Virus record (IMG/VR): IMGVR_UViG_2526164598_000014
Source: a virus
Lineage: Duplodnaviria > Heunggongvirae > Uroviricota > Caudoviricetes
Direction: 5' to 3' (one strand)
DNA: 49,244 bases
Shown here: positions 9,120-45,251 of the stretch, in pieces
How positions within the stretch are numbered: the stretch's first letter is position 1
How the letters are laid out: every line of letters begins with the position of its first letter
Notes under the pieces: generated by a model
Seen by the model: the letters and a program-made list of their open reading frames with translations, nothing else
What the model was told of the DNA's origin: nothing
The model's database searches: none
Translations under genes and position numbers: made by a program

Positions 9120-9264
9120 ACGGATAGTCCTGGTATTGTTCCATCACATCCTGAGCATGCTCTTCGAACTCTTTAGACTGGCCCCCTGAATCTCCAGACA
9201 ACCAATATCACTTAAATAAGTGATAGTCTTAATACTAGTTTTTAGACTAGTCATTGGAGAGCAG

Positions 9265-9630
9265 ATGATTGATGTCTTAGGACCGGAGAAACGCAGACGG
9301 CGTACTACACAGGAAAAGATCGCTATTGTTCAGCAGAGTTTTGAACCGGGAATGACGGTCTCCCTTGTTGCCCGGCAACACGGTGTGGCAGCCAGCCAGT
9401 TATTTCTCTGGCGCAAGCAATACCAGGAGGGAAGTCTTACTGCTGTGGCCGCAGGAGAGCAGGTCGTTCCTGCCTCTGAACTTGCTGCTGCCATGAAGCA
9501 GATTAAAGAACTCCAGCGCCTGCTCGGCAAAAAAACGATGGAAAATGAACTCCTTAAAGAAGCCGTTGAATACGGGCGTGCAAAAAAGTGGATAGCGCAC
9601 GCGCCCTTATTGCCCGGGGATGGGGAGTAA
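9265..9630 (+). CDS. insC: IS2 InsC (orfA, HTH transposase N-terminal protein)
   Basis: [41 protein letters not shown]... matches IS2 InsC as recalled. Confidence 0.9.
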
Positions 9631-10493
9631 GCTTAGTCAGCCGTTGTCTCCGGGTGTCGCGTGCGCAGTTGCACGTAATTCTCAGACGAACCGATGACTG
9701 GAAAGATGGTCGCCGCAGCCGTCACTCAGATGATACGGATGTGCTTCTCCGTATACACCATGTTATCGGAGAGCTGCCCACGTATGGTTATCGTCGGGTA
9801 TGGGCGCTGCTTCGCAGACAGGCCGAACTTGATGGTATGCCTGCGATCAATGCCAAACGTGTTTACCGGATCATGCGCCAGAATGCGCTGTTGCTTGAGC
9901 GAAAAACCGCTGTACCGCCATCGAAACGGGCACATACTGGCAAAGTGGCCGTGAAAGAAAGCAATCAACGATGGTGCTCTGACGGGTTCGAGTTCCGCTG
10001 TGATAACGGAGAAAAACTGCGAGTCACGTTCGCGCTGGACTGCTGTGACCGTGAGGCACTGCACTGGGCAGTCACTACGGGCGGCTTCGACAGTGAAACA
10101 GTACAGGACGTAATGCTGGGAGCGGTGGAACGCCGCTTCGGCAACGAGCTTCCGGCGTCTCCAGTAGAGTGGCTGACGGATAATGGTTCATGCTACCGGG
10201 CTAATGAAACACGGCAGTTTGCCCGGATGTTGGGGCTTGAACCGAAGAACACGGCGGTGCGGAGTCCGGAGAGTAACGGCATAGCAGAGAGCTTCGTGAA
10301 AACGATAAAGCGTGACTACATCAGTATCATGCCTAAACCAGACGGGTTAACGGCAGCAAAGAACCTTGCAGAGGCGTTCGAGCATTATAACGAATGGCAT
10401 CCGCATAGTGCACTGGGTTATCGCTCGCCACGGGAATATCTGCGGCAGCAGGCCAGTAATGGGTTAAGTGATAACAGGTGTCTGGAAATATAG
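9588..10493 (+). CDS. insD: IS2 InsD (orfB, DDE transposase catalytic part)
   Basis: 301-aa ORF matching IS2 InsD as recalled; overlaps insC in -1 frame as expected for the fusion transposase. Confidence 0.9.
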
Positions 10494-10668
10494 GGGCAAA
10501 TCCACTCTTCAAATTCTTCTTCCATATATCACCTTAAATAGTGGATTGCGGTAGTAAAGATTGTGCCTGTCTTTTAACCACATCAGGCTCGGTGGTTCTC
10601 GTGTACCCCTACAGCGAGAAATCGGATAAACTCTATTCACCCCTACAGAGAGCAAAAGAGAAACGCCG

Positions 10669-11250
10669 ATGAACAACTCATGGTGGCAGGAACTAATGCA
10701 TTTTTTCCTGCAAGGAATGACACTTAAACAGTTGATTCATATGCTAATCATCCTGATCATATTGATTATTGTTATGCCGGTAAGCGTAAAAGAATGGATA
10801 AACCTGCATAATCCAGAAATCCTTCCTTATTATTGGATGTATTACATCCTGTTGTTCTGCGTTAGCTATGTGCTTAACGGTGTTGTTAATTCCGCTTATC
10901 ACGCTGTGACTGAAAGAATTGAGGTATCCGCTGCTCAGAAGCGCAAATCTAAAGAAGAAAAATATGTGCAAGATTTGTTTGATTCGTTAACTCTTGGAGA
11001 AAGAGCGTATTTGGCATTCGCTGTAGCCGCGAATAACCAGCTAAAGACAGAAAAGGGAAGCCCTGAAGCAATCTCATTGCTCGAAAAAGGGCTTCTTATT
11101 CGGATACCTTCTGCTACTGGATATCCTGAAATCGACCGTTTTGTTATCCCGGAACGCTATAGAAATGAGTGCTACATTCGGTTTGCCGGGAAGGCAGACA
11201 GCCTTATGGATGAACTTATCGCTCAGGATAAGCATGGCAAAAACAAGTAA
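10669..11250 (+). CDS. sieB: SieB-like superinfection exclusion membrane protein, 193 aa
   Basis: Rightward gene embedded antisense in pL operon between ral and N as in lambda; two hydrophobic segments; AT-rich. Confidence 0.6.
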   Translation: MNNSWWQELMHFFLQGMTLKQLIHMLIILIILIIVMPVSVKEWINLHNPEILPYYWMYYILLFCVSYVLNGVVNSAYHAVTERIEVSAAQKRKSKEEKYVQDLFDSLTLGERAYLAFAVAANNQLKTEKGSPEAISLLEKGLLIRIPSATGYPEIDRFVIPERYRNECYIRFAGKADSLMDELIAQDKHGKNK

Positions 11251-11266
11251 TTAGCAAATGAATTTA

Positions 11267-11539
11267 TCATCTCGCCGTCAGTTGTTTTGATTTCCGGTAG
11301 CCTGCCGCGTAAAGAGCTACGTTCGGAAGACAAGTTGAACCTTCATATTTTCTGGTCAACGTTGTCAGAGTTATCACTTCTGCTCTCATTGCTGGTTTGC
11401 GCTTGCATTGCAAGACCACTCGTGAAGGGGTTGGCCTGTGTAGCTTGTCGGAGCTGATCGCCTCCTGACTTTGCAGATTTGCGCGACGAGCTCTACGGCG
11501 AGAAGCTGCGGTGCCTTTAAATTCTGTTTTTCTGGACAT
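11267..11539 (-). CDS. N: N-type transcription antiterminator, non-lambda allele, 90 aa from ATG 11537-11539
   Basis: Arginine-rich motif near N-terminus (TAASRRRARRANLQ), strong RBS GGGAGG 5 nt upstream, position right of pL/nutL; longer 114-aa ORF in track lacks RBS. Confidence 0.7.
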   Translation of the reverse strand: MSRKTEFKGTAASRRRARRANLQSQEAISSDKLHRPTPSRVVLQCKRKPAMRAEVITLTTLTRKYEGSTCLPNVALYAAGYRKSKQLTAR

Positions 11540-11564
11540 GGATTCCTCCCGAATAAACTTTGGC

Positions 11565-11612
11565 GATGCAATCTCGAAGCTCCTCCTGAGACGATTGCTT
11601 CGGCATTGCATC
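11565..11612 (-). promoter_or_regulatory. Long inverted repeat in N leader (GATGCAAT...ATTGCATC with inner GCTTCG/CGAAGC)
   Basis: Perfect 8-bp outer stem and inner stem read from sequence, 26 nt upstream of N start; analogous in position to the lambda N-leader structure. Confidence 0.4.
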
Positions 11613-11637
11613 CCACAGCTTATGTGGTTGGGTGATC

Positions 11638-11684
11638 TGGCTTTTCAGCCACGTAGTCGAGAGTCGACGTTGTTTAAAGAGCCT
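11638..11684 (-). promoter_or_regulatory. nutL: Putative nutL (boxA-like GGCTCTTTA and boxB hairpin TGGCT-GAAA-AGCCA)
   Basis: On the reverse strand, boxA-like element followed about 25 nt later by a 5-bp stem with GAAA-type loop. Confidence 0.45.
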
Positions 11685-11945
11685 GCCAGTCTGTTCCATT
11701 TGGCTTCCAGCGTCCTGCTGACGGTTAAATAGTACGATATGTACTTTACAAGATCAATACAATTTGTTGTAAGTTGGCGTGGTTTTTTATAACGCTTTGT
11801 ATTTAATAGTGTTGTTTTTTAGCGTGGATGTATTGCCTCGGCGATGTAAGGAGAGATCAGAATTGCGTGGTTTAGTGGGTTGCATCTATTTATTTTTCAA
11901 TAAATACAATTGGTTATGTGTTTTTAGGTGGGGCGATCGTGAGGC

Positions 11946-11977
11946 AAAGAAAACCCGGCGCTGAGGCCGGGTTTTTC
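11946..11977. terminator. Bidirectional intrinsic terminator closing the cI-proximal operon (tImm-like)
   Basis: Hairpin CCCGGC-GCTGAG-GCCGGG at 11954-11971 flanked by A-run and T-run; directly after stop of 258-aa gene. Confidence 0.65.
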
Positions 11978-12753
11978 TAGGCTACCAGAGACTCAATCCA
12001 AGAGTCTCTGGTATGGAATGGCAACACTCGTGCGGTATCATTAAATAGTAGTGATAGTTGCTGTAGCTCAGGTGTTAACCCATCGCTGTCAACTATTACA
12101 AATCTATTGTTTATGTCAGGAACGACCTGACTTAAGTCAACAATCTTCCCAACTGTTGAGTGGGCAGTATTCCATCCCTTACTGCTGGCAAGGCTTACCG
12201 TAAACCCGCGTTTTGGTGGTATTAGTCGAGACTCATTCCTTAGCGTTAACGGAACAGTAATGTTATGCCCACTAATACCTTTCACTTTTTCCTTTAAGGC
12301 TAGTCGCTTCCCAAGCCCTGCTGATTTTAAGTAACTGATTACACATTTTTCGAACTTATCGTCTTTGACCTCAGCATACCAATCAGCAGTTTGGGCGGAT
12401 GCAAGAATCCCACCACGAATAACATTTGCAGTTACCTGTCCAACGGACGACTCATCTGCCCACGCAGATATCTCTCCAGAATCATTTAATGAAATTCCTT
12501 GCGAAGCGAGTGATGACCTAATCAGATCAATTTTCTTTTTAGTCAGGTGGATGCCGCGTGATTCAATATTCATCAATGTATCGCAGTAGTCTGTAACCCT
12601 ATACTGACCACTCATCTCTTGAACGAATACACTTATCTGCTCACAATCATCGTAGTATGTGAAGGGACTAATAACGCGCAGCAACGTGTCGCTCATTGGG
12701 TGGCATTCAAACCCGAGCTTAGATATGACTGTTGAACACGTTACATTTCCCAT
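11977..12753 (-). CDS. Hypothetical protein, 258 aa, second gene of operon in the rexAB slot
   Basis: ATG at 12751-12753; overlaps upstream 180-aa gene by 13 nt; AT-rich; no motif I can recognise. Confidence 0.7.
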   Translation of the reverse strand: MGNVTCSTVISKLGFECHPMSDTLLRVISPFTYYDDCEQISVFVQEMSGQYRVTDYCDTLMNIESRGIHLTKKKIDLIRSSLASQGISLNDSGEISAWADESSVGQVTANVIRGGILASAQTADWYAEVKDDKFEKCVISYLKSAGLGKRLALKEKVKGISGHNITVPLTLRNESRLIPPKRGFTVSLASSKGWNTAHSTVGKIVDLSQVVPDINNRFVIVDSDGLTPELQQLSLLFNDTARVLPFHTRDSWIESLVA

Positions 12754-13283
12754 GATAGCTGACCTGATTTATCTTGATTAGGTAAAGGTGGGCTGCCTTC
12801 ATATATGATATTAAGCGCCTCGCAAAAATAATTCCAGTAGCCAAAAAAATCATCTGGCTTGATGTTCGTTTCAAGCTTAAGTGCAATTTCTTCCCCAGCT
12901 GATTCGAAGTACATGTGATAGTGAGGACCTCGAGCCACCTCAACAAAATCTGGATGGTTCACTATAGATTTATTACGGTGTGGCTTGTTATCCGCAGGGT
13001 ACGGGTCAAGCGCGTAAATGCGCCTGTCATGAAGAAACATCACAAATGAAATCTTCACTATATCCACCCCTTCAACGATAGGAGGACGCCAGTGAAGCAT
13101 AAATCTTATGCCTGTGATTGGGTTGCCAATTTCATCAAAAGCTTTGAGATCCAATTTAAACCAGATTGGGGTTCGTCCCTCACTTCCGGTCCATGTAACT
13201 CCGCTAAAAGTTACTTTTTTCAAGCGAGTAATAGCTTGGTCAACCTCTTTCTGGGTAGGCTTAAAGTCGCCTTTTTTAGCCAC
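12741..13283 (-). CDS. Hypothetical protein, 180 aa, first gene of operon in the rexAB slot
   Basis: GTG at 13281-13283 (first in-frame ATG only at codon 62); 46 bp downstream of cI stop; no motif I can recognise. Confidence 0.6.
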   Translation of the reverse strand: MAKKGDFKPTQKEVDQAITRLKKVTFSGVTWTGSEGRTPIWFKLDLKAFDEIGNPITGIRFMLHWRPPIVEGVDIVKISFVMFLHDRRIYALDPYPADNKPHRNKSIVNHPDFVEVARGPHYHMYFESAGEEIALKLETNIKPDDFFGYWNYFCEALNIIYEGSPPLPNQDKSGQLSWEM

Positions 13284-13329
13284 TGATTCGTATCACCATG
13301 AAAGTTATTGTTAATACCTGTGCTTCTTG

Positions 13330-13983
13330 TCACCCAAACGTCTCTTCAGGCCACTGACTAGCGATAACTTTCCCCACAACGGAACAACTCTCATTGCATG
13401 GGATCATTGGGTATTGTGGGTTTAGTGGCTGTAGAAACACCTGACCGCTATCCCTGATCAGTTTCTTGAAGGTAAACTCATCACCACCAAGTCTGGCTAT
13501 ACAGAAATCGCCTGGCTCAACAGCCTGCTCAGGGTCAACCAGAATTAACATCCCGTCAGGAAAGCTGGGCTTGGAACCTGTTGGTGCGGTCATTGAGTTA
13601 CCTTCAACCTCAAGCCAGAATGCAGAGTCACTGGCTTTTTTGGTTGTGCTTACCAATCTCTCCGCATCGCCTTTGGTAAAGGTTCTGAGTTCTGGAGAGA
13701 ACATCCCAGCCTGAACATGAGAAAAAACAGGGTACTCATATTGTTTTTTAACTGGGGCCGATGAGTATTCGCCAACAGGTGAAAATGTCCCGTCGTGGTT
13801 GAATGATATGTTATCAATACCAAGGTATTTAAACACCACACCAATATCACTAAGAGATGGATGACGAGATCCGCGCAACCAGTGTCCAATCCCACCCTGC
13901 GTCATACCTAGCTCTTCGGCTAACTTCTCTTGAGTTATGCCGAGCTCTTTCATTCTGGATCTAGCCAGTTCATACCATTTCAT
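13330..13983 (-). CDS. cI: CI-type repressor (N-terminal HTH, C-terminal LexA-like S24 autopeptidase domain)
   Basis: HTH segment ([20 protein letters not shown]) and C-terminal domain with GNSM and K motifs; divergent from cro across an operator region; start taken at MKWYEL (ATG 13981-13983) with AAGGA 7 nt upstream, alternative ATG at 13987-13989. Confidence 0.85.
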
Positions 13984-13989
13984 TTTCAT

Positions 13990-14099
13990 GTCCTTATTAT
14001 TACGCTTTGTACTGGAACCATCCATGCACAATGTGTATTTTTACTTGTATTCGTAAAGTACATATTGTATTTTTTATTCGTGTTTACTATGGAGGGCAT
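13990..14099. promoter_or_regulatory. OR region: divergent pRM/pR promoters and operators between cI and cro
   Basis: 110-bp AT-rich spacer with repeated TACA-N3-TGTA / TACAA-N-TTGTA palindromes (e.g. GTAAAGTACATATTGTA). Confidence 0.55.
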
Positions 14100-14315
14100 A
14101 TGAGCAACCTACGAAAATATCGAGAGTCACTGAATATCTCTCAAACAACACTTGCTAAGGCAGTTGGATGCACACAGGGAGCTATCGGACATTGGGAATC
14201 TGGTCGTCGCTTCCCAGACCTTAAAACATGCCGTGCTCTTGTTGCGTGCCTAAACAAGTTAGGCGCAAAAGTCAGTCTTGATGACGTGTTCCCGCCGGAA
14301 CACAAAGCCGCTTAA
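14100..14315 (+). CDS. cro: Cro-type HTH repressor, 71 aa
   Basis: ATG at 14100 preceded by GGAGGG; HTH (ISQTTLAKAVGCTQGAIGHWESG); longer TTG-start ORF in track is an artefact. Confidence 0.8.
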   Translation: MSNLRKYRESLNISQTTLAKAVGCTQGAIGHWESGRRFPDLKTCRALVACLNKLGAKVSLDDVFPPEHKAA

Positions 14316-14325
14316 TAAGCGGATC

Positions 14326-14371
14326 CGCTCTTTGTAACAACGGACATTCGTCCTACGTCGCTGAAAAGCGA
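14326..14371 (+). promoter_or_regulatory. nutR: Putative nutR (boxA CGCTCTTT and boxB hairpin TCGCT-GAAA-AGCGA)
   Basis: boxA-like octamer at 14326-14333 and GAAA-loop hairpin at 14358-14371, between cro and cII. Confidence 0.5.
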
Positions 14372-14456
14372 GTTCCAAGATATCTGACCAACTAAGGCCA
14401 TATGCGTTTCCACGCATACCTTTCAACTAACTATTCACTATTGGAAATCTTAAGAA

Positions 14457-14753
14457 ATGGAAAGAACAAGTTACAGCAAACTATCACAGCGTGACGTTGA
14501 TCGCGCAGAAACAGATTTACTTATCAATCTGTCAGCTATTACCCAGCGCGGTCTGGCAAAGATGATTGGCTGTCATGAATCGAAGATAAGCAGAACGGAC
14601 TGGAGATTTATTGCTTCGGTCTTGTGTGCTTTCGGAATGGCATCAGACATCAGTCCGATTAGCAGGGCTTTTAAGTATGCGCTTGATGGACTCACCAATA
14701 AAAAACGCCCGGCGGCAACCGAGCGTTCTGAACAAATCCAGATGGAGTTCTGA
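14457..14753 (+). CDS. cII: CII transcriptional activator
   Basis: 98-aa ORF; C-terminal half matches lambda CII as recalled (…LTNKKRPAATERSEQIQMEF). Confidence 0.9.
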   Translation: MERTSYSKLSQRDVDRAETDLLINLSAITQRGLAKMIGCHESKISRTDWRFIASVLCAFGMASDISPISRAFKYALDGLTNKKRPAATERSEQIQMEF

Positions 14754-14775
14754 GGTCATTACTGGATCTATCAAC
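14697..14775 (-). ncRNA. oop: oop antisense RNA
   Basis: Reverse strand matches lambda oop (GTTGATAGATCCAGTAATGACCTCAGAACTCCATCTGGATTTGTTCAGAACGCTCGGTTGCCGCCGGGCGTTTTTTATT) including its terminator. Confidence 0.8.
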
Positions 14776-14785
14776 AGGAGTCATT

Positions 14786-15684
14786 ATGACAAATACAGCA
14801 AAAATACTCAACTTCGGCAGAGGTAACTTTGCCGGACAGGAGCGTAATGTGGCAGATCTCGATGATGGTTACGCCAGACTATCAAATATGCTGCTTGAGG
14901 CTTATTCGGGCGCAGATCTGACCAAGCGACAGTTTAAAGTGCTGCTTGCCATTCTGCGTAAAACCTATGGGTGGAATAAACCAATGGACAGAATCACCGA
15001 TTCTCAACTTAGCGAGATTACAAAGTTACCTGTCAAACGGTGCAATGAAGCCAAGTTAGAACTCGTCAGAATGAATATTATCAAGCAGCAAGGCGGCATG
15101 TTTGGACCAAATAAAAACATCTCAGAATGGTGTATCCCTCAAAACGAGGGAAAATCCCCTAAAACGAGGGATAAAACATCCCTCAAATTGGGGGATTGCT
15201 ATCCCTCAAAACAGGGGGACACAAAAGACACTATTACAAAAGAAAAAGAAAAGATTATTCGTCCGAGAATTCTGGCGAATCCTCTGACCAGCCAGAAAAC
15301 GACCTTTCTGTGGTGAAACCGGATGCTGCAATTCAGAGCGGCAGCAAGTGGGGGACAGCAGAAGACCTGACCGCCGCAGAGTGGATGTTTGACATGGTGA
15401 AGACCATCGCGCCATCAGCCAGAAAACCGAATTTTGCAGGGTGGGCTAACGATATCCGCCTGATGCGTGAACGTGACGGACGTAACCACCGCGACATGTG
15501 CGTGCTGTTCCGCTGGGCATGCCAGGACAACTTCTGGTCCGGTAACGTGCTTAGCCCGGCCAAACTCCGCGACAAGTGGACCCAGCTCGAAATCAACCGT
15601 AACAAGCAACAGGCAGTCGTGACAGCCAGCAAACCAAAACTCGACCTGACAAACACAGACTGGATTTACGGGGTGGATCTATGA
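14786..15684 (+). pseudogene. O: Lambda O replication initiator, frameshifted (1-nt deletion in A-tract around 15238-15253)
   Basis: N-terminal 150 aa in frame 1 (ends 15316) and lambda-O C-terminal 140 aa in the next frame (to 15684); total span 899 nt, one short of 900. Confidence 0.85.
15134..15219. repeat. ori: ori-lambda iterons (four ~18-bp O-binding repeats ATCCCTCAAAACGAGGGA and variants)
   Basis: Four tandem near-palindromic repeats inside O, followed by the AT-rich tract. Confidence 0.85.
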
Positions 15685-16382
15685 AAAACATCGCCGCACA
15701 GATGGTTAACTTTGACCGTGAGCAGATGCGTCGGATCGCCAACAACATGCCGGAACAGTACGACGAAAAGCCGCAGGTACAGCAGGTAGCGCAGATCATC
15801 AACGGTGTGTTCAGCCAGTTACTGGCAACTTTCCCGGCGAGTCTGGCTAACCGTGACCAGAACGAACTGAACGAAATCCGCCGCCAGTGGGTTCTGGCTT
15901 TCCGGGAAAACGGGATCACCACAATGGAACAGGTTAACGCAGGAATGCGCGTAGCCCGTCGGCAGAATCGACCATTTCTGCCATCACCCGGGCAGTTTGT
16001 TGCATGGTGCCGGGAAGAAGCATCCGTTATCGCCGGACTGCCAAACGTCAGCGAGCTGGTTGATATGGTTTACGAGTATTGCCGGAAGCGAGGCCTGTAT
16101 CCGGATGCGGAGTCTTATCCGTGGAAATCAAACGCGCACTACTGGCTGGTTACCAACCTGTATCAGAACATGCGGGCCAATGCGCTTACTGATGCGGAAT
16201 TACGCCGTAAGGCCGCAGATGAGCTTGTCCATATGACTGCGAGAATTAACCGTGGTGAGGCGATCCCTGAACCAGTAAAACAACTTCCTGTCATGGGCGG
16301 TAGACCTCTAAATCGTGCACAGGCTCTGGCGAAGATCGCAGAAATCAAAGCTAAGTTCGGACTGAAAGGAGCAAGTGTATGA
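15681..16382 (+). CDS. P: Lambda P replication protein (helicase loader)
   Basis: 233-aa ORF matching lambda P as recalled. Confidence 0.95.
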   Translation: MKNIAAQMVNFDREQMRRIANNMPEQYDEKPQVQQVAQIINGVFSQLLATFPASLANRDQNELNEIRRQWVLAFRENGITTMEQVNAGMRVARRQNRPFLPSPGQFVAWCREEASVIAGLPNVSELVDMVYEYCRKRGLYPDAESYPWKSNAHYWLVTNLYQNMRANALTDAELRRKAADELVHMTARINRGEAIPEPVKQLPVMGGRPLNRAQALAKIAEIKAKFGLKGASV

Positions 16383-16669
16383 CGGGCAAAGAGGCAATTA
16401 TTCATTACCTGGGGACGCATAATAGCTTCTGTGCGCCGGACGTTGCCGCGCTAACAGGCGCAACAGTAACCAGCATAAATCAGGCCGCGGCTAAAATGGC
16501 ACGGGCAGGTCTTCTGGTTATCGAAGGTAAGGTCTGGCGAACGGTGTATTACCGGTTTGCTACCAGGGAAGAACGGGAAGGAAAGATGAGCACGAACCTG
16601 ATTTTTAAGGAGTGTCGCCAGAGTGCCGCGATGAAACGGGTATTGGCGGTATATGGAGTTAAAAGATGA
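16379..16669 (+). CDS. ren: Lambda Ren
   Basis: 96-aa ORF matching lambda Ren as recalled. Confidence 0.9.
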   Translation: MTGKEAIIHYLGTHNSFCAPDVAALTGATVTSINQAAAKMARAGLLVIEGKVWRTVYYRFATREEREGKMSTNLIFKECRQSAAMKRVLAVYGVKR

Positions 16670-16742
16670 CCATCTACATCACTGAGCTAATAACAGGCCT
16701 GCTGGTAATCGCAGGCCTTTTTATTTGGGGGAGAGGGAAGTC

Positions 16743-17183
16743 ATGAAAAAACTAACCTTTGAAATTCGATCTCCAGCACATCAGCAAAACGCTATTCACG
16801 CAGTACAGCAAATTCTTCCAGACCCAACCAAACCAATCGTAGTAACCATTCAGGAACGCAACCGCAGCTTAGACCAAAACCGAAAGCTTTGGGCTTGCCT
16901 TGGTGACGTTTCGCGTCAGGTTGAATGGCATGGTCGCTGGCTGGATGCAGAAAGCTGGAAGTGTGTGTTTACCGCAGCATTAAAGCAGCAGGACGTTGTT
17001 CCTAACCTTGCCGGGAATGGCTTTGTGGTAATAGGACAGTCAACCAGCAGGATGCGTGTAAGCGAATTTGCGGAGCTATTAGAGCTTATACAGGCATTCG
17101 GTACAGAACGTGGCGTTAAGTGGTCAGACGAAGCGCAACTGGCTCTCGAATGGAAAGCGCGATGGGGAGATCGGGCTGCATGA
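16743..17183 (+). CDS. ninB: NinB (Orf) recombination mediator, 146 aa
   Basis: Starts MKKLTFEIRSPAHQQNAIHAVQQILPDPTKP as lambda NinB. Confidence 0.9.
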   Translation: MKKLTFEIRSPAHQQNAIHAVQQILPDPTKPIVVTIQERNRSLDQNRKLWACLGDVSRQVEWHGRWLDAESWKCVFTAALKQQDVVPNLAGNGFVVIGQSTSRMRVSEFAELLELIQAFGTERGVKWSDEAQLALEWKARWGDRAA

Positions 17184-17707
17184 CTATCAAATCAAATACG
17201 CCAGCACACGACAAGGACTGCTGGCAAACTCCGCTTTGGCTTTTTGATGCACTGGATATTGAGTTTGGATTCTGGCTGGATTCGGCAGCGAGCGACAAAA
17301 ATGCTCTGTGCGCTCACTGGCTAACTGAGGCCGACGACGCGCTCAATTCTGAGTGGGTAAGCCAGGGTGCAATCTGGAATAACCCACCGTACAGCAATAT
17401 CAGGCCGTGGGTGGAAAAAGCCGCTGAGCAGTGCATACAACAGCGACAGACGGTAGTGATGCTTGTGCCAGAGGATATGTCTGTCGGATGGTTCAGCAAG
17501 GCTCTGGAGAGTGTTGACGAAGTTCGTATTATCACTGATGGACGGATTAATTTTATCGAACCATCGACAGGGCTGGAGAAGAAGGGAAACAGCAAAGGTT
17601 CCATGCTGCTGATTTGGCGACCGTTCATCAGTCCTCGACGGATGTTTACTACCGTATCCAAAGCGGCATTGATGGCGATCGGGCAGGGCGTCAGGAGGGC
17701 TGCATGA
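17180..17707 (+). CDS. Phage DNA N6-adenine methyltransferase (Dam-like), 175 aa
   Basis: NPPY catalytic motif ([10 protein letters not shown]); ATG overlaps ninB stop (ATGA); occupies the ninC/ninD slot. Confidence 0.75.
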
Positions 17708-17880
17708 GACGACAGCGGCGAAGTTTCACCGACATCATCTGCGAAAACTGCAAATACCTTCCAACGAAACGCTCCAGAAATAAACGCAAGCCAATCCCAA
17801 AAGAATCTGACGTAAAAACCTTCAACTACACGGCTCACCTGTGGGATATCCGGTGGCTAAGACATCGTGCGAGGAAATGA
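17704..17880 (+). CDS. ninE: NinE, 58 aa
   Basis: [51 protein letters not shown] matches NinE as recalled; ATG overlaps dam stop. Confidence 0.85.
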
Positions 17881-18224
17881 CAATGGATTATTCACAGTTA
17901 AGTGATTTTGAAATTAACCGAATGGTAGGAGACATAATTTTTAAAGGCCTTTGGGCATGTAAGCCTGAAACATCAGGGAATAACACCAACAAATGGTATT
18001 ACGGAAATGCCGATGTAAGTCTTGAGCCATTAAACCCTTTGCCTGACTACTGCAATGATCCGAGCGCTTCATGGCCGATTATTGAGAAATACAGGATTTC
18101 TATCTTAGACCAGTTAACTGAATGGTGTGTGGATGCAAAAGGCGTAAGCCCAATATTTGATACCAGACCTCTCCGCGCCGCCATGATTGTCTTTCTCCTG
18201 ATGCAGGAGGCCAATAATGCTTAG
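17877..18224 (+). CDS. Hypothetical nin-region protein, about 115 aa
   Basis: ATG at 17877 overlaps ninE stop (ATGA); no motif recognised. Confidence 0.5.
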
Positions 18225-18434
18225 CCCATCTCAATCCCTTCAATACCTGAAAGGAAGCATAGAGCGGGCTTCAATGTGCACAGAGTGGATTCTATCTAGG
18301 TTTAGCGCATACAGAAGATTGCCGGTAAAGGGCATGCCAAGCAAGTCGATGCTGCATATGCAAAAGAATGCGCGCTGGAAGGTATGGCGAGAACACAGGT
18401 TATCTGGCTGAAAGAGGGGGTTATTAAGGCGTGA
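18217..18434 (+). pseudogene. ninF-like 5' end joined out of frame to the 3' end of another gene (remnant)
   Basis: First 10 residues as lambda NinF ([10 protein letters not shown]) then divergence; a different frame (18306-18434) carries a plausible C-terminus ...[26 protein letters not shown] whose TGA overlaps the rusA GTG. Confidence 0.35.
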
Positions 18435-18793
18435 ATACCTACAGCATCACATTACCCTGGCCTCCGAGCAATAATCGCTATTACCGCCATAATCGCGGGC
18501 GCACGCACGTCAGCGCAGAGGGGCAGGCATACCGCGATAACGTCGCCCGAATCATTAAAAACGCAATGCTGGATATCGGCCTGGCTATGCCTGTGAAAAT
18601 CCGCATTGAGTGCCACATGCCGGATCGCCGTCGCCGTGACCTGGATAATCTGCAAAAAGCCGCTTTTGACGCACTCACTAAAGCAGGTTTCTGGCTGGAT
18701 GATGCTCAGGTCGTTGATTACCGCGTTGTGAAGATGCCTGTTACCAAAGGTGGGAGGCTGGAACTGACCATCACCGAAATGGAGAATGAATGA
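18431..18793 (+). CDS. rusA: RusA Holliday junction resolvase
   Basis: 120-aa ORF (GTG start) matching RusA of lambdoid prophages as recalled ([18 protein letters not shown]...). Confidence 0.9.
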
Positions 18794-18930
18794 TGTTTGA
18801 GTTTAATATGGCAGAACTTCTTCGCCACCGCTGGGGGCGTCTGCGCTTATATCGTTTCCCCGGTTCTGTTTTGACCGATTACCGAATACTGAAGAATTAC
18901 GCCAAAACCCTGACAGGAGCAGGAGTATGA
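18790..18930 (+). CDS. ylcG: YlcG-like small protein, 46 aa ([46 protein letters not shown])
   Basis: ATG overlaps rusA stop; matches the DLP12 ylcG product as recalled; below ORF-track cutoff. Confidence 0.6.
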
Positions 18931-19015
18931 AGTCAGAGATAACAATCAACTAATACTGTTTTGTTGATTTTTGCTTGTAATTGGCGTTCTGGTCTGATTT
19001 TTGTGGAGTAAGTTG

Positions 19016-19399
19016 ATGCGTGATATTCAGATGGTTCTTGAGCGTTGGGGAGCGTGGGCGGCTAATAATCATGAAGATGTGACCTGGTCGTCCATTGCCG
19101 CCGGTTTTAAGGGATTAATTACTTCAAAAGTAAAATCTCGCCCGCAATGTTGTGACGATGACGCGATGATTATTTGCGGGTGCATGGCCCGTCTGAAAAA
19201 GAACAACAGCGATTTGCACGATTTATTAGTAGATTATTATGTAGTCGGTATGACATTCATGTCACTGGCAGGTAAGCATTGCTGCTCTGATGGTTATATC
19301 GGGAAAAGGTTACAGAAGGCTGAGGGCATAATTGAAGGGATGTTAATGGCATTAGATATCCGGTTAGAGATGGATATCGTTGTTAATAACTCTAATTAA
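19016..19399 (+). CDS. Q: Q-type late antiterminator of the phage 82 / DLP12 QuuD type, 127 aa
   Basis: [34 protein letters not shown]... matches the phage-82-type Q as recalled; not lambda Q. Confidence 0.8.
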
Positions 19400-19419
19400 T
19401 ATGCCAATTGTTTACTAAA

Positions 19420-19451
19420 AATTATTAAAAATGGGGCGTTGCAACGCCCCC
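19420..19451 (-). terminator. Putative terminator downstream of the porin gene
   Basis: Hairpin GGGGCG-TTGCAA-CGCCCC at 19433-19450 followed on the reverse strand by a T-rich run. Confidence 0.35.
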
Positions 19452-19587
19452 AAAAATAAAGGGTAATATATAACAGAAGATTTATATAGTTAGAAGCAAG
19501 GTTGTGCTCCTAAAGGAAGTGGCTTGAGGGAGCCACTTATATGTTGGGGAGGCAAAGCCTCCCGCAACATATCTTTTAGTAATCAAA

Positions 19588-20670
19588 TTAGAACTGGTAA
19601 ACCATACCTACAGCAACGATATCATCGGTAGCAACGCCAGATGCTTTCGTGAAATCGCTCTTATCAATCAGGTTGATTTTGTAATCAACAAAAGTGGACA
19701 TATTTTTGTTGAAGTAATAGGTTGCACCTACATCAATATATTCAACCAGGTCCTGATCACCCCACGCACCCAAGTCTTTTCCTTTAGATTGCAGGTAAGC
19801 AACGGACGGACGCAGACCGAAGTCGAACTGATATTGTGCAACTACTTCGAAGTTTTGTGCTTTGTTGGCAATATGGTTATTACCAAAAACAGTCATGTTC
19901 TGGGTTTCAGAATAGGTGGTAGCCAGATAGATGTTGTTCGCATCATATTTCAGACCAGCTGCCCATACTTCAGCATTTTGACCAGATGCATTCAGGCTGT
20001 TGTTACCGTAGATAACCTGATTATTAGTGCGGTCAGATTTAGCATAGGTTGCACCTACACCGAATCCTTCATACTCATAAGTAGTGGAGAAACCGAAACC
20101 ATCACCATTAGCTTCAGTTACGTCAGTGCGGTCATTTTTACCCTGATACTGAGCAGCAAAGTTCAGACCATCAACCAGACCAAAGAAGTCGTTGTTACGA
20201 TAAGTTGCAACACCAGTGGTGCGACCAGTCATGAACACATCTGTTTGGGTCCAGGTATCGCCACCGAATTCTGGCAGAACGTCAGTCCACGCACCGATGT
20301 CGTATGCTACACCGTAGTTACGGCCGTAATCGATTGAGCCGTAGTCACCGAATTTCAGGCCTGCAAATGCAAGACGGGTTTTGTCTTTGGAGGAACCTTG
20401 AGATTCAGCGCGGTTGCCTTTGAATTCATATTCCCACTGACCGAAACCAGTCAGTTGATCGTTGATTTGGGTTTCACCTTTGAAGCCAAGACGGGCATAA
20501 GTAGTATCACCATCATCTGCATCATTAGAGGAGAAGTAGTGCTTAGCATTAACTTTCCCGTACAGATCCAGCTTGTTACTGTCTTTATTATAAATTTCAG
20601 CTGCCTGAGCAGACATCGCCATCAGTACTGATGCAGCTACAGCAGAAATTGCCACTGTTAATTTTTTCAT
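19588..20670 (-). CDS. nmpC: Phage-borne general porin of the OmpC/OmpF/NmpC family, 360 aa
   Basis: Signal peptide plus C-terminal ...VGMVYQF porin signature; sits between Q and holin on the opposite strand as nmpC does in DLP12. Confidence 0.85.
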
Positions 20671-21098
20671 CGTGAGCCCTTTTTTTTGAACTATTATTAA
20701 AAAATGATGTCACTGCGCGATAAATATTCATCTAATCAATGTGATTATTTCAAGATGTAAGTTTTGGTTTCTCGTTTGATTTGTGAAGTAGATCTCTATT
20801 TTTATCTGAACTTTTTTCTATCGAATCCTATTCATAGCTCTTGTCTGAATAAAAATAAATCTACTAGCCAATTTATATTAACGGCTGTTATTTATAAGTG
20901 CTCTATAATTTGAAGGTTCAATTTAAATCGGCTAAAAATAACACTGGAAATTATTTGTTGGTTATTTGTTGAGATTTGCTTATGTATTTGTAGTGGTGTT
21001 TTCAATACTCGGTAGCATTCTCGCAAATATCATTTAGTGGTTTACGTACGTAAAAAATTGGTTATGCTGTTAAGAGTGGTTACTTCGTCACACAGCTT

Positions 21099-21122
21099 AA
21101 ACCCGCCGTCGAGCGGGTTTTT
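21099..21122 (+). terminator. Intrinsic terminator upstream of holin (tR'-like)
   Basis: AAACCCGC-CGTCGA-GCGGGTTTTT hairpin plus T-run, about 120 nt upstream of the holin start. Confidence 0.45.
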
Positions 21123-21243
21123 CCATTTTTTGAGTCTCGATATTAGCTGATAACCCAATACCTGAGTTATTCACTGACTCCGAGTCTGTTACGTTTCGTA
21201 GTATTCCCTCAATTTACACCCGCTTTGTCTGCGAGGTGGGGTT

Positions 21244-21459
21244 ATGAAATCCATGGATAAGTTAACAACGGGTGTCGCCTATGGCACCTCAGCAGGTAGT
21301 GCCGGTTACTGGTTTTTACAGCTGCTCGATAAAGTCACGCCCTCACAGTGGGCAGCAATAGGTGTGCAGGGTAGCCTGGTATTTGGCCTGCTGACGTACC
21401 TGACAAACCTTTATTTCAAGATTAAAGAAGATAAGCGCAAGGCTGCGAGAGGTGAATAA
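21244..21459 (+). CDS. S: Class II pinholin of phage 21 S type, 71 aa, dual-start motif MKSM
   Basis: [58 protein letters not shown]... two TM segments, Met1 and Met4. Confidence 0.9.
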
Positions 21460-21796
21460 TGCCTCCATCATTACGAAAAGCCGTTGCTGCTGCTATTGGT
21501 GGCGGAGCAATTGCTATAGCATCAGTGTTAATCACTGGCCCAAGTGGTAACGATGGTCTGGAAGGTGTCAGCTACATACCATACAAAGATATTGTTGGTG
21601 TATGGACTGTATGTCACGGGCATACAGGAAAAGACATCATGCTCGGTAAAACGTATACCAAAGCAGAATGCAAAGCCCTCCTGAATAAAGACCTTGCCAC
21701 GGTCGCCAGACAAATTAACCCGTACATCAAAGTCGATATTGTCAACGCCAAGATTATTGGCCGTTTTTCGCCATTTTTAATGTCCGCTATTGGTCA

Positions 21797-23763
<1,967 letters not shown>

Positions 23764-24081
23764 GAGTGTTCCCTTTGTGGTGTAGGAACCTTAAGGAAAC
23801 AACATGTTGGGTGGAGCGGACAATCCAAATGGTGAATTACTGTCTTATATCATTGGCGCTGACAATATACCGGAAACAATGCGCGGCGCTCTTTACTCAT
23901 TCGTTTACAACGTGGGTGCTGGCAATTTCAGAACATCGACGCTTCTTCGCAAAATAAACCAGGGCGATATCAAAGGCGCATGTGATCAGCTACGTCGCTG
24001 GACATATGCTGGCGGTAAGCAATGGAAAGGTCTCATGACTCGTCGTGAGATTGAGCGTGAAATCTGTTTGTGGGGTCAGCA

Positions 24082-24540
24082 ATGAACAGAGTAACCGCGA
24101 TTATCTCCGCTCTGGTTATCTGCATCATCGTCGGCCTGTCATGGGCTGTTAATCATTACCGTGATAACGCCATTACCTACAAAGCCCAGCGCGACAAAAA
24201 TGCCAGAGAACTGAAGCTGGCGAACGTGGCAATTACTGACATGCAGATGCGTCAGCGTGATGTTGCTGCGCTCGATGCAAGATACACAAAGGAGCTTGCT
24301 GATGCTAACGCGACTATCGAAAGTCTCCGTGCTGATGTTTCTGCTGGGCGTAAGCGCCTGCAAGTCGCCGCCACCTGTGCAAAGTCAACGACCGGAGCCA
24401 GCGGCATGGGCGATGGAGAAAGCCCAGGACTTACAGCAGATGCTGAACTCAATTATTACCGTCTCCGAAGTGGAATCGACAAGATAACCGCGCAGGTTAA
24501 CTACCTGCAGGAATACATCAGGACGCAATGCCTGAAATAA
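24082..24540 (+). CDS. Rz: Rz inner-membrane spanin
   Basis: N-terminal TM segment, coiled-coil body; ATG at 24082 overlaps endolysin stop. Confidence 0.85.
24302..24487 (+). CDS. Rz1: Rz1 outer-membrane lipoprotein spanin, embedded in +1 frame of Rz
   Basis: ATG at 24302 preceded by AAGGAG; lipoprotein signal [20 protein letters not shown] followed by proline-rich segment. Confidence 0.65.
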
Positions 24541-42429: not shown

Positions 42430-45251
42430 TGAAAAACGTTTATGTGAAACCGCCTCCGGGCGGTTTTGTCGTTTATGGAGCGTGAGGAATGGGTAAAGGC
42501 AGCAGTAAGGGGCATACTCCGCGCGAAGCGAAGGACAACCTGAAGTCCACGCAGTTGCTGAGTGTGATCGATGCCATCAGCGAAGGGCCGGTTGAAGGTC
42601 CGGTGGATGGATTAAAAAGCGTGCTGCTGAACAGTACGCCAGTGCTGGACAGTGAGGGGAATACCAATATCTCCGGCGTCACGGTGGTGTTCCGGGCCGG
42701 TGAGCAGGAGCAGACACCGCCGGAGGGATTTGAATCCTCCGGCTCCGAGACGGTGCTGGGTACGGAAGTGAAATACGACACGCCGATCACCCGGACCATC
42801 ACGTCGGCAAACATTGACCGACTGCGTTTTACCTTCGGCGTGCAGGCACTGGTGGAAACCACCTCAAAGGGGGACAGGAATCCGTCGGAAGTCCGCCTGC
42901 TGGTTCAGATCCAGCGTAATGGTGGCTGGGTGACGGAAAAAGACATCACCATTAAGGGCAAAACCACCTCGCAGTATCTGGCCTCGGTGGTGGTGGGTAA
43001 CCTGCCGCCGCGCCCGTTCAATATACGGATGCGCAGGATGACGCCGGACAGCACCACAGACCAGCTGCAGAACAAAACGCTCTGGTCGTCATACACCGAA
43101 ATCATCGATGTGAAACAGGGCTACCCGAACACGGCACTGGTCGGCGTGCAGGTGGATTCGGAGCAGTTCGGCAGCCAGCAGGTGAGCCGTAATTATCATC
43201 TGCGCGGGCGCATTCTGCAGGTGCCGTCGAACTATAGCCCGCAGACGCGGCAATACAGCGGTATCTGGGACGGAACGTTTAAACCGGCATACAGCAACAA
43301 CATGGCCTGGTGTCTGTGGGATATGCTGACCCATCCGCGCTACGGCATGGGGAAACGTCTTGGTGCGGCGGATGTGGACAAATGGGCGCTGTATGTCATC
43401 GGCCAGTACTGCGACCAGTCAGTGCCGGACGGCTTTGGCGGCACGGAGCCGCGCATCACCTGTAATGCGTACCTGACCACACAGCGCAAGGCGTGGGATG
43501 TGCTCAGTGATTTCTGCTCGGCGATGCGCTGTATGCCGGTATGGAACGGGCAGACGCTGACGTTCGTGCAGGACCGACCATCAGATAAGGTGTGGACCTA
43601 TAACCGCAGTAATGTGGTGATGCCGGATGATGGCGCGCCGTTCCGCTACAGCTTCAGCGCCCTGAAGGACCGCCATAATGCCGTTGAGGTGAACTGGATT
43701 GACCCGGATAACGGCTGGGAGACGGCGACAGAGCTTGTGGAGGACACGCAGGCCATTGCCCGTTACGGTCGTAACGTCACGAAGATGGATGCCTTTGGCT
43801 GTACCAGCCGGGGCAGGCACATCGCGCCGGGCTGTGGCTGATTAAAACAGAACTGCTGGAAACGCAGACCGTGGACTTCAGCGTGGGCGCAGAAGGGCTT
43901 CGCCATGTGCCGGGCGATGTCATTGAAATCTGTGATGATGACTATGCCGGTATCAGCATCGGCGGGCGCGTGCTGGCGGTAAACAGCCAGACCCGGACGC
44001 TGACGCTCGACCGTGAAATCACGCTGCCATTCTCCGGTACCACGCTGATAAGCCTGGTTGACGGAAGTGGCAATCCGGTCAGCGTGGAGGTTCAGTCCGT
44101 CACCGACGGCGTGAAGGTGAAAGTGAGCCGTGTTCCTGACGGCGTTGCTGAATACAGCGTGTGGGGGCTGAAGCTGCCGACGCTGCGCCAGCGCCTGTTC
44201 CGCTGCGTGAGTATCCGTGAGAACGACGACGGCACATATGCCATCACCGCCGTGCAGCATGTACCGGAAAAAGAAGCCATCGTGGATAACGGGGCGCACT
44301 TTGACGGCGACCAGAGCGGCACGGTGAATGGTGTCACGCCGCCAGCGGTGCAGCACCTGACTGCCGAAGTCACCGCAGACAGCGGGGAATATCAGGTGCT
44401 GGCGCGCTGGGACACGCCGAAGGTGGTGAAGGGCGTGAGCTTCCTGCTCCGTCTGACCGTAACAGCGGATGACGGCAGTGAGCGGCTGGTCAGCACGGCC
44501 CGGACGACGGAAACCACTTACCGCTTCACACAACTGGCGCTGGGGAACTACAGGCTGACAGTCCGGGCAGTAAATGCGTGGGGGCAGCAGGGCGATCCGG
44601 CGTCGGTATCGTTCCGGATTGCCGCACCGGCAGCGCCGTCGCGGATTGAGCTGACGCCGGGCTATTTTCAGATAACCGCCACGCCGCATCTTGCGGTTTA
44701 TGATCCGACGGTACAGTTTGAGTTCTGGTTCTCGGAAAAGCGGATTGCGGATATCAGGCAGGTTGAAACCACAGCACGCTATCTTGGCACGGCGCTGTAC
44801 TGGATAGCCGCCAGTATCAATATCAAACCGGGCCATGATTATTACTTTTATATCCGCAGTGTGAACACCGTTGGCAAATCGGCATTCGTGGAGGCTGTTG
44901 GTCAGCCGAGTGATGATGCATCCGGTTATCTGGATTTTTTCAAAGGCGAGATAGGGAAAACCCATCTGGCTCAGGAGCTGTGGACGCAGATTGATAACGG
45001 TCAGCTTGCGCCTGACCTGGCTGAAATCAGGACGTCCATTACGGATGTCAGCAATGAAATCACGCAGACCGTCAATAAGAAACTGGAAAACCAGAGTGCG
45101 GCAATTCAGCAGATACAGAAGGTTCAGGTTGATACAAATAATAACCTGAACAGCATGTGGGCTGTGAAGCTGCAGCAGATGCAGGACGGACGCCTTTATA
45201 TCGCGGGTATTGGTGCCGGTAGTAAGCGGCTCGTCAGAACCGTATTGATAT

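Follow-up and report, generated by a model that had tools for sequence, protein, structure and literature searches.

In the draft genome of Escherichia coli DEC13C, the J gene of a defective lambdoid prophage is a pseudogene of an ordinary, already known kind that has been disrupted twice, with nothing new about it. One G is missing from a conserved run of five, and an IS66-family element also splits the gene, so that the missing G is neither the sole nor the decisive lesion. Whether the base was lost through a real slip or only in an artefact, this locus cannot yield a functional J, which leaves the prophage unable to build adsorbing virions. For annotation, J should be recorded as a pseudogene (frameshift plus IS) and the prophage as defective, a status relevant to the question of whether it can give rise to infectious particles in DEC13C.

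The stretch of DNA that was analysed (the window; 49,244 nucleotides, from IMG/VR) was traced by an exact look-up of the J fragments to the 3' end of contig AIHH01000020.1, of which it forms the last 49 kb. The contig belongs to assembly GCA_000250355.2, a 2012 draft of strain E. coli DEC13C, in which the two J fragments are named EHX68484.1 and EHX68485.1 in GenBank. The window opens with the stop codon of ybhC, a gene of the host chromosome, and we take this side to be the lambda attB region. It continues with int, xis, recombination genes, an immunity region, O-P, nin and Q, followed by a porin gene, lysis genes, and head and tail genes, the last gene being lom. The element is a lambdoid prophage integrated beside ybhC.

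The N-terminal reading frame of J lies at 42489..43841 on the plus strand, as given by the list of open reading frames and its translation, and comprises 450 codons (EHX68484.1). These are 441 native codons, a glycine at position 442 (GGC for GGG), eight out-of-frame codons (RHIAPGCG) and a TGA; the product carries the Pfam domains FNIII-A_GpJ and Phage-tail_3. In phage lambda, J codons 439-446 read ACC AGC CGG GGG CAG GCA CAC CGC, and the conserved run of five G (G5) spans codons 441-442 (CGG GGG). The window is one G short at this site and reads ACC AGC CGG GGC AGG CAC ATC GCG CCG GGC TGT GGC TGA. The tract of four G (G4) is at 43810..43813 on the plus strand, where lambda and nearly all J homologues examined have G5, and the missing base shifts the frame into a premature TGA at 43839..43841 (plus strand), as seen in the sequence, the list of open reading frames and the lambda alignment. 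Both observations of the initial annotation, a J stop soon after the GGGG run and a J-like sequence that runs on in the next frame from 43814, were borne out, the former directly from the sequence and the latter by checking the translation, which is uninterrupted. The codon-by-codon alignment with lambda J that it had proposed as a check gives exactly a 1-nt contraction of the G-run, and in an alignment to the closest relatives the missing G is the sole uncompensated gap within J. G4 is a discrete departure from the conserved in-frame state, not a chance pattern.

The middle segment of J occupies 43814..45221 on the plus strand in this next frame, and aligns collinearly with intact J genes as far as the junction with the IS. 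The open reading frame called here (43871-45331, 486 aa, EHX68485.1) extends into the IS, and Ig_J, Ig_J_second and Phage_Tail_Tip domains were identified in this segment with Pfam. The C-terminal segment, the receptor-binding end, is found at 47921..48692 on the plus strand with Phage_Tail_Tip and Ig_GpJ_C domains. Removal of the IS and of one copy of its target duplication brings it into frame with the middle segment, and lom (Pfam Ail_Lom) follows downstream.

The alignment to intact J genes breaks off at 45221 and picks up again at 47921. Alignment to an annotated relative (L001), Pfam and the terminal sequences identify the intervening 2,699 bp (45222..47920, minus strand) as an ISCro1-like element of the IS66 family; it is 99.7% identical, without gaps, to the element of L001 annotated as 'IS66-like element ISCro1 family'. 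Three genes are encoded on the minus strand, namely tnpC (45252-46823, 523 aa, Pfam DDE_Tnp_IS66), tnpB (46843-47190, 115 aa, TnpB_IS66) and tnpA (47190-47867, 225 aa, HTH_Tnp_1), and the terminal inverted repeats are GTAAGCGGCTC... and GTAACCGGCTC.... The 8-bp sequence TGCCGGTA is present at 45214..45221, where it appears as an overlap of the alignment ends, and again at the end of the IS at 47921..47928. A target duplication of 8 bp is typical of the IS66 family, and the element thus combines tnpA, tnpB and a DDE_Tnp_IS66-bearing tnpC with the inverted repeats and duplication of that family. The arrangement is that of a clean transposition into J at about codon 911.

When one G was added in silico and the IS and one repeat copy were removed, an open frame of 1165 codons was obtained, whose protein shares 99.4% identity with the intact J of L016, a relative, and 82% with lambda J over the full length. 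The IS-removed construct without the added G contains 37 stops. Judged by this repair, J carries exactly two lesions, the missing G and the IS, and no other damage. The proposal that one extra G restores the frame stands as far as 45221, but not beyond, where the IS interrupts J; a fifth G would not yield a functional J because the IS66-family element splits the gene.

Phage lambda gpJ (NP_040600.1; central tail fibre or tail tip attachment protein, TipJ) has the same gene order, H-M-L-K-I-J-lom, and shares the Pfam series FNIII-A_GpJ, Phage-tail_3, Ig_J, Ig_J_second, Phage_Tail_Tip and Ig_GpJ_C. The whole of this domain series is covered by the three fragments of the window, which also lie where J is expected in the tail module, between I (preceded by H, M, L and K) and lom (L005, L012; annotated relatives L001, L003). 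Unlike lambda gpJ, the J of the window is broken at codon 442 and split at ~911; it has no full-length product, and no single uninterrupted frame of ~1130-1165 codons was found. It is a pseudogene of the TipJ family and not a functional member.

The prophage of DEC13C is decaying. It resembles decayed (cryptic) lambdoid prophages of E. coli in its IS2, IS21-family and IS66-family insertions, its frameshifted O and its interrupted endolysin gene. Such prophages lose structural genes to frameshifts and IS elements; here the decay is very recent, the structural genes are otherwise intact and J has not drifted beyond its two lesions. An IS21-family element of 2,125 bp (21740-23864, minus strand), encoding istA (390 aa) and istB (~264 aa) and bordered by the 4-bp sequence ATAT on both flanks, interrupts the endolysin gene, whose two fragments lie at 21459-21800 and 23804-24085. 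Among three sister assemblies, this insertion is present only in DEC13C. An IS2-like element of the IS3 family (~1.33 kb, 9174-10504) lies between ral and sieB, with open reading frames of 121 and 301 aa, ends TAGACTGGCCCCC... and ...GGGGCAAATCCA, and CTCTT on both flanks. In the 19.4-kb late region the other genes are intact, and the further one-base length differences relative to L001 are limited to two intergenic positions, 26523 and 42438. Across the 49 kb, no frame-breaking indel other than the gap in J is left unexplained.

Gene O (14786-15684) is split into products of 176 aa and ~123 aa, with a run of five A (15243-15247) where the nearest relative has six. The identical 176-aa O product was found in unrelated assemblies, JXMX01000002.1 (a 1.37-Mb contig) and Logan DRR275243, and the O frameshift is therefore a real, circulating allele. 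The initial annotation had likened the J lesion to that of O. The two cases are not equal, as the frameshift of O occurs in independent assemblies and that of J in only one contig. Two further observations were made on O. JXMX01000002.1 has no IS element in the 20.5 kb around O, a stretch that leaves the head and tail genes outside, and a -1 slip of the Lys-tRNA on AAA (15245-47 to 15244-46) would give the wild-type residues E K R K.

Two sister strains, DEC13D (L156) and DEC13E (L158), were compared with positions 19823-42938 of the window. DEC13D has the same prophage, with one SNP and no indels relative to DEC13C in 17.6 kb, and likewise in a stretch of 20.9 kb, and the two strains agree at 95 of 95 homopolymer runs of at least five bases in 20.9 kb, 22 of which are runs of G or C. 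DEC13E also has the same prophage, with four SNPs and one indel in 14.3 kb. DEC13D carries an IS3-family element in the endolysin gene and DEC13E an IS66-family element upstream of Nu1. As the IS sites differ between the strains, IS activity has reshaped the prophage since they separated and the prophage is actively decaying; in the DEC13 clone, IS movement has outpaced point mutation.

The sister contigs stop inside J and short of the G-run (nt 1322), at nt 450 in DEC13D and nt 1217 in DEC13E; the run falls in a region where assemblies are tangled and broken by J paralogues. DEC13C and DEC13E show six clustered differences within J nt 509-749 (~240 nt), while the ~14-15 kb upstream are near-identical, with only four differences, a pattern that suggests that paralogue mixing or gene conversion may have affected J. 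At 43119 and 43237, the N-terminal part of J has nonsynonymous differences from both DEC13E and UDCW01, a Cys to Gly substitution in KQ(C/G)YPNT and an Asn to Ser substitution in SNY(N/S)PQT, the latter unique in a 9-sequence panel. The indel of DEC13E is a private T6 to T5 frameshift in L (L013 9495 / L158 ~20698; window ~40520), which leaves a called L product of 221 aa instead of 232 aa and is followed by three clustered SNPs ~430-450 nt downstream in L. This contraction looks like an assembly error or paralogue mixing in the DEC13E draft. Homopolymer frameshifts in old drafts can thus usefully be tested against sister strains and independent assemblies; here such a comparison proved the O frameshift real and left that of J undecided between two readings.

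The length of the G-run was examined in other J genes. G5 was present in all 16 of the independent J loci fetched by protein look-up, and a 22-mer containing it was found in at least 120 IMG/VR stretches. The 76-mer of the window with G4 was not matched perfectly by any of 4,173 complete E. coli records or 90 phage records, where its best matches cover 76 of 77 bases and have G5, and the G4 allele had no match among JGI metagenome contigs. The 450-aa and 486-aa products occur in one contig only in the whole indexed collection. The G4 22-mer was also found in two IMG/VR prophage contigs (L033 and L034) that have the same 450-aa truncation, with intact neighbouring genes; the contraction is the only lesion seen in the sequence examined. 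Among complete E. coli genomes, three records match the G4 allele with the flanks of L033 at an identity of at least 99%, and in the one examined, CP025910, the G4 lies at the record edge amid other frameshifts in I and J. This 'complete' chromosome (NZ_CP025910.1 1-5280; L035) opens within a prophage tail module in which I is annotated as frameshifted and J is in pieces, including the G4, and resembles an unpolished record edge.

The three other G4 alleles of J share 95-97% identity with the window and among themselves, which indicates that the contraction arose, or was miscalled, independently each time. Its frequency is 3 of ~140 fetched independent loci, which were chosen partly by pattern. 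One-base contractions were also found at the J runs at nt 1676, 1781 and 2093, each surveyed in ~75-125 J copies in IMG/VR; they occur in copies L060, L129 and L151, of which L060 has two. The homopolymer variants of these other J copies comprised contractions only, with no expansions.

The initial annotation had left the missing G as either a real inactivating slip or a homopolymer sequencing error, and both alternatives remain after testing. We lean slightly towards a genuine contraction by replication slippage. Slippage would have shortened G5 to G4 in J, with the frame shifting after residue 442 and ending eight codons on. The loss would be tolerated in a prophage that has no further need of a tail tip, J being cut by the IS66-family element, the endolysin gene by the IS21-family element, and O being frameshifted; the three IS insertions in the DEC13C prophage are consistent with such relaxed selection. 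A reliable consensus is indicated by the 95 runs that match DEC13D, by the recurrence of the O frameshift in independent assemblies, and by a Logan k-mer assembly of SRR096911 that equals window positions 10477-21768 at 100%. The SRR096911 contig ends 29 bases into the IS21-family element and thus contains the DEC13C-specific endolysin junction, for which reason we take these to be DEC13C's own reads; the match is independent of the assembler, though not of the platform. A real slip also agrees with the G5 to G4 change in three other J alleles and the contractions at three other J runs, and is opposed by the truncated products being unique to the DEC13C contig. Up to the IS junction, the private differences of J in a 9-sequence alignment are one substitution (43237) and the deletion, and positions 30.5-45.2 kb have no private substitution against a larger panel. 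Together with the 99.4% identity of the repaired gene, these few differences give no sign of long drift, and a long-standing decay of J, considered as a further candidate, was rejected on the single private substitution in the 9-sequence panel.

A substantial, although less than even, probability attaches to an artefact, in which the strain would have GGGGG and the draft consensus was under-called, or, in a variant, is a chimera with paralogous J reads from another prophage; the IS insertion would then be the single real lesion of J. The G4 has the features of the homopolymer under-calls of the pyrosequencing era, as it is a single-base contraction of a 5-base run in an otherwise conserved open reading frame of one 2012 contig, and a one-base under-call in a 5-base homopolymer is a typical 454 error. 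The draft was probably made from 454 paired-end reads with the Celera assembler. Its contig crosses three IS elements at which the short-k-mer assembly of this strain breaks, implying long-insert pairs, and other E. coli were sequenced in 2012 by the same centre with 3-kb paired-end 454 Titanium reads and the Celera assembler (PMC3491183). The confinement of the truncated product to one contig, the lack of a perfect match to the G4 76-mer in the 4,173 E. coli records and the perfect preservation of the rest of J all fit an artefact, as does the direction of the homopolymer variants in other J copies, all of them contractions. The G4 of CP025910 sits in an obviously noisy record edge, the private contraction in L of the otherwise near-identical DEC13E looks like an error of the same project, and the six clustered differences between DEC13C and DEC13E within ~240 nt of J suggest paralogue mixing in one of the assemblies. 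Unlike the usual homopolymer under-calls, however, the G4 stands in a contig whose other runs agree with the sister strain, with zero discordances in the 95 runs; O, the other frameshift in the window, proved real, the J gap is alone of its kind in the 49 kb, and a real slip in an already inactivated gene costs nothing. By a rough count, homopolymer discordances amount to ~1 per ~57 kb of sister-assembly sequence, which gives a prior probability of about 6% for an error somewhere in the unverified ~3.6 kb of J. The prior probability of a real contraction is, again roughly, similar to that of an error or somewhat higher, because the gene is already dead and because of the divergence from the outgroup; the nearest outgroup prophage, UDCW01000004.1, differs by 0.23% upstream of J. 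Readings other than a real slip and an artefact together carry very little weight.

One of these, in which the G tract would serve for programmed -1 ribosomal frameshifting or as an on/off contingency tract for J, is given practically no credence. A -1 slip of the Gly-tRNA from GGC (43812-14) to GGG (43811-13) would recreate the wild-type residues R G Q A H, the frame change falls within a lambda-type tail gene cluster, as does the programmed -1 frameshift of lambda G/GT, and the G4 contraction recurs in three other alleles. The lambda G/GT site is a conserved one with a slippery heptamer; at the J site, by contrast, nearly all homologues, lambda included, have G5 and stay in frame, so that the shifted state is not conserved but a rare singleton. 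Moreover, C CGG GGC does not follow the X XXY YYZ pattern of a slippery heptamer. Known contingency tracts are far longer than the 4-5 bases seen here, and a long tract with frequent length polymorphism between strains was not found in J. The other runs of J contract at a similarly low rate, which argues that the site is not special, and the downstream IS66-family insertion would make read-through pointless. Recoding and phase variation were thus rejected on conservation, the short tract, the missing heptamer and the downstream IS. It is also doubtful that the G5 at J codons 441-442 is a recurrent natural hot spot for the loss of the prophage tail tip, an idea that has its basis in the contraction being present in four J alleles (DEC13C, two IMG/VR prophages and CP025910) and that, if true, would make this contraction a repeatable first step in prophage grounding. 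The G-run as a special hot spot was rejected because other J runs show similar rare contractions.

Two minor observations concern regions of the window outside the tail genes. The porin gene between Q and the lysis genes (19588-20670, minus strand) is intact and encodes 360 aa. It is OmpC/NmpC-like according to its annotation in relatives, which have it too, and is a passenger gene. A run of six T at 14070-14075, in the spacer that separates the repressor-like gene from the cro-like gene, corresponds to seven T in three other prophages; the six T are reproduced by the Logan assembly of SRR096911.
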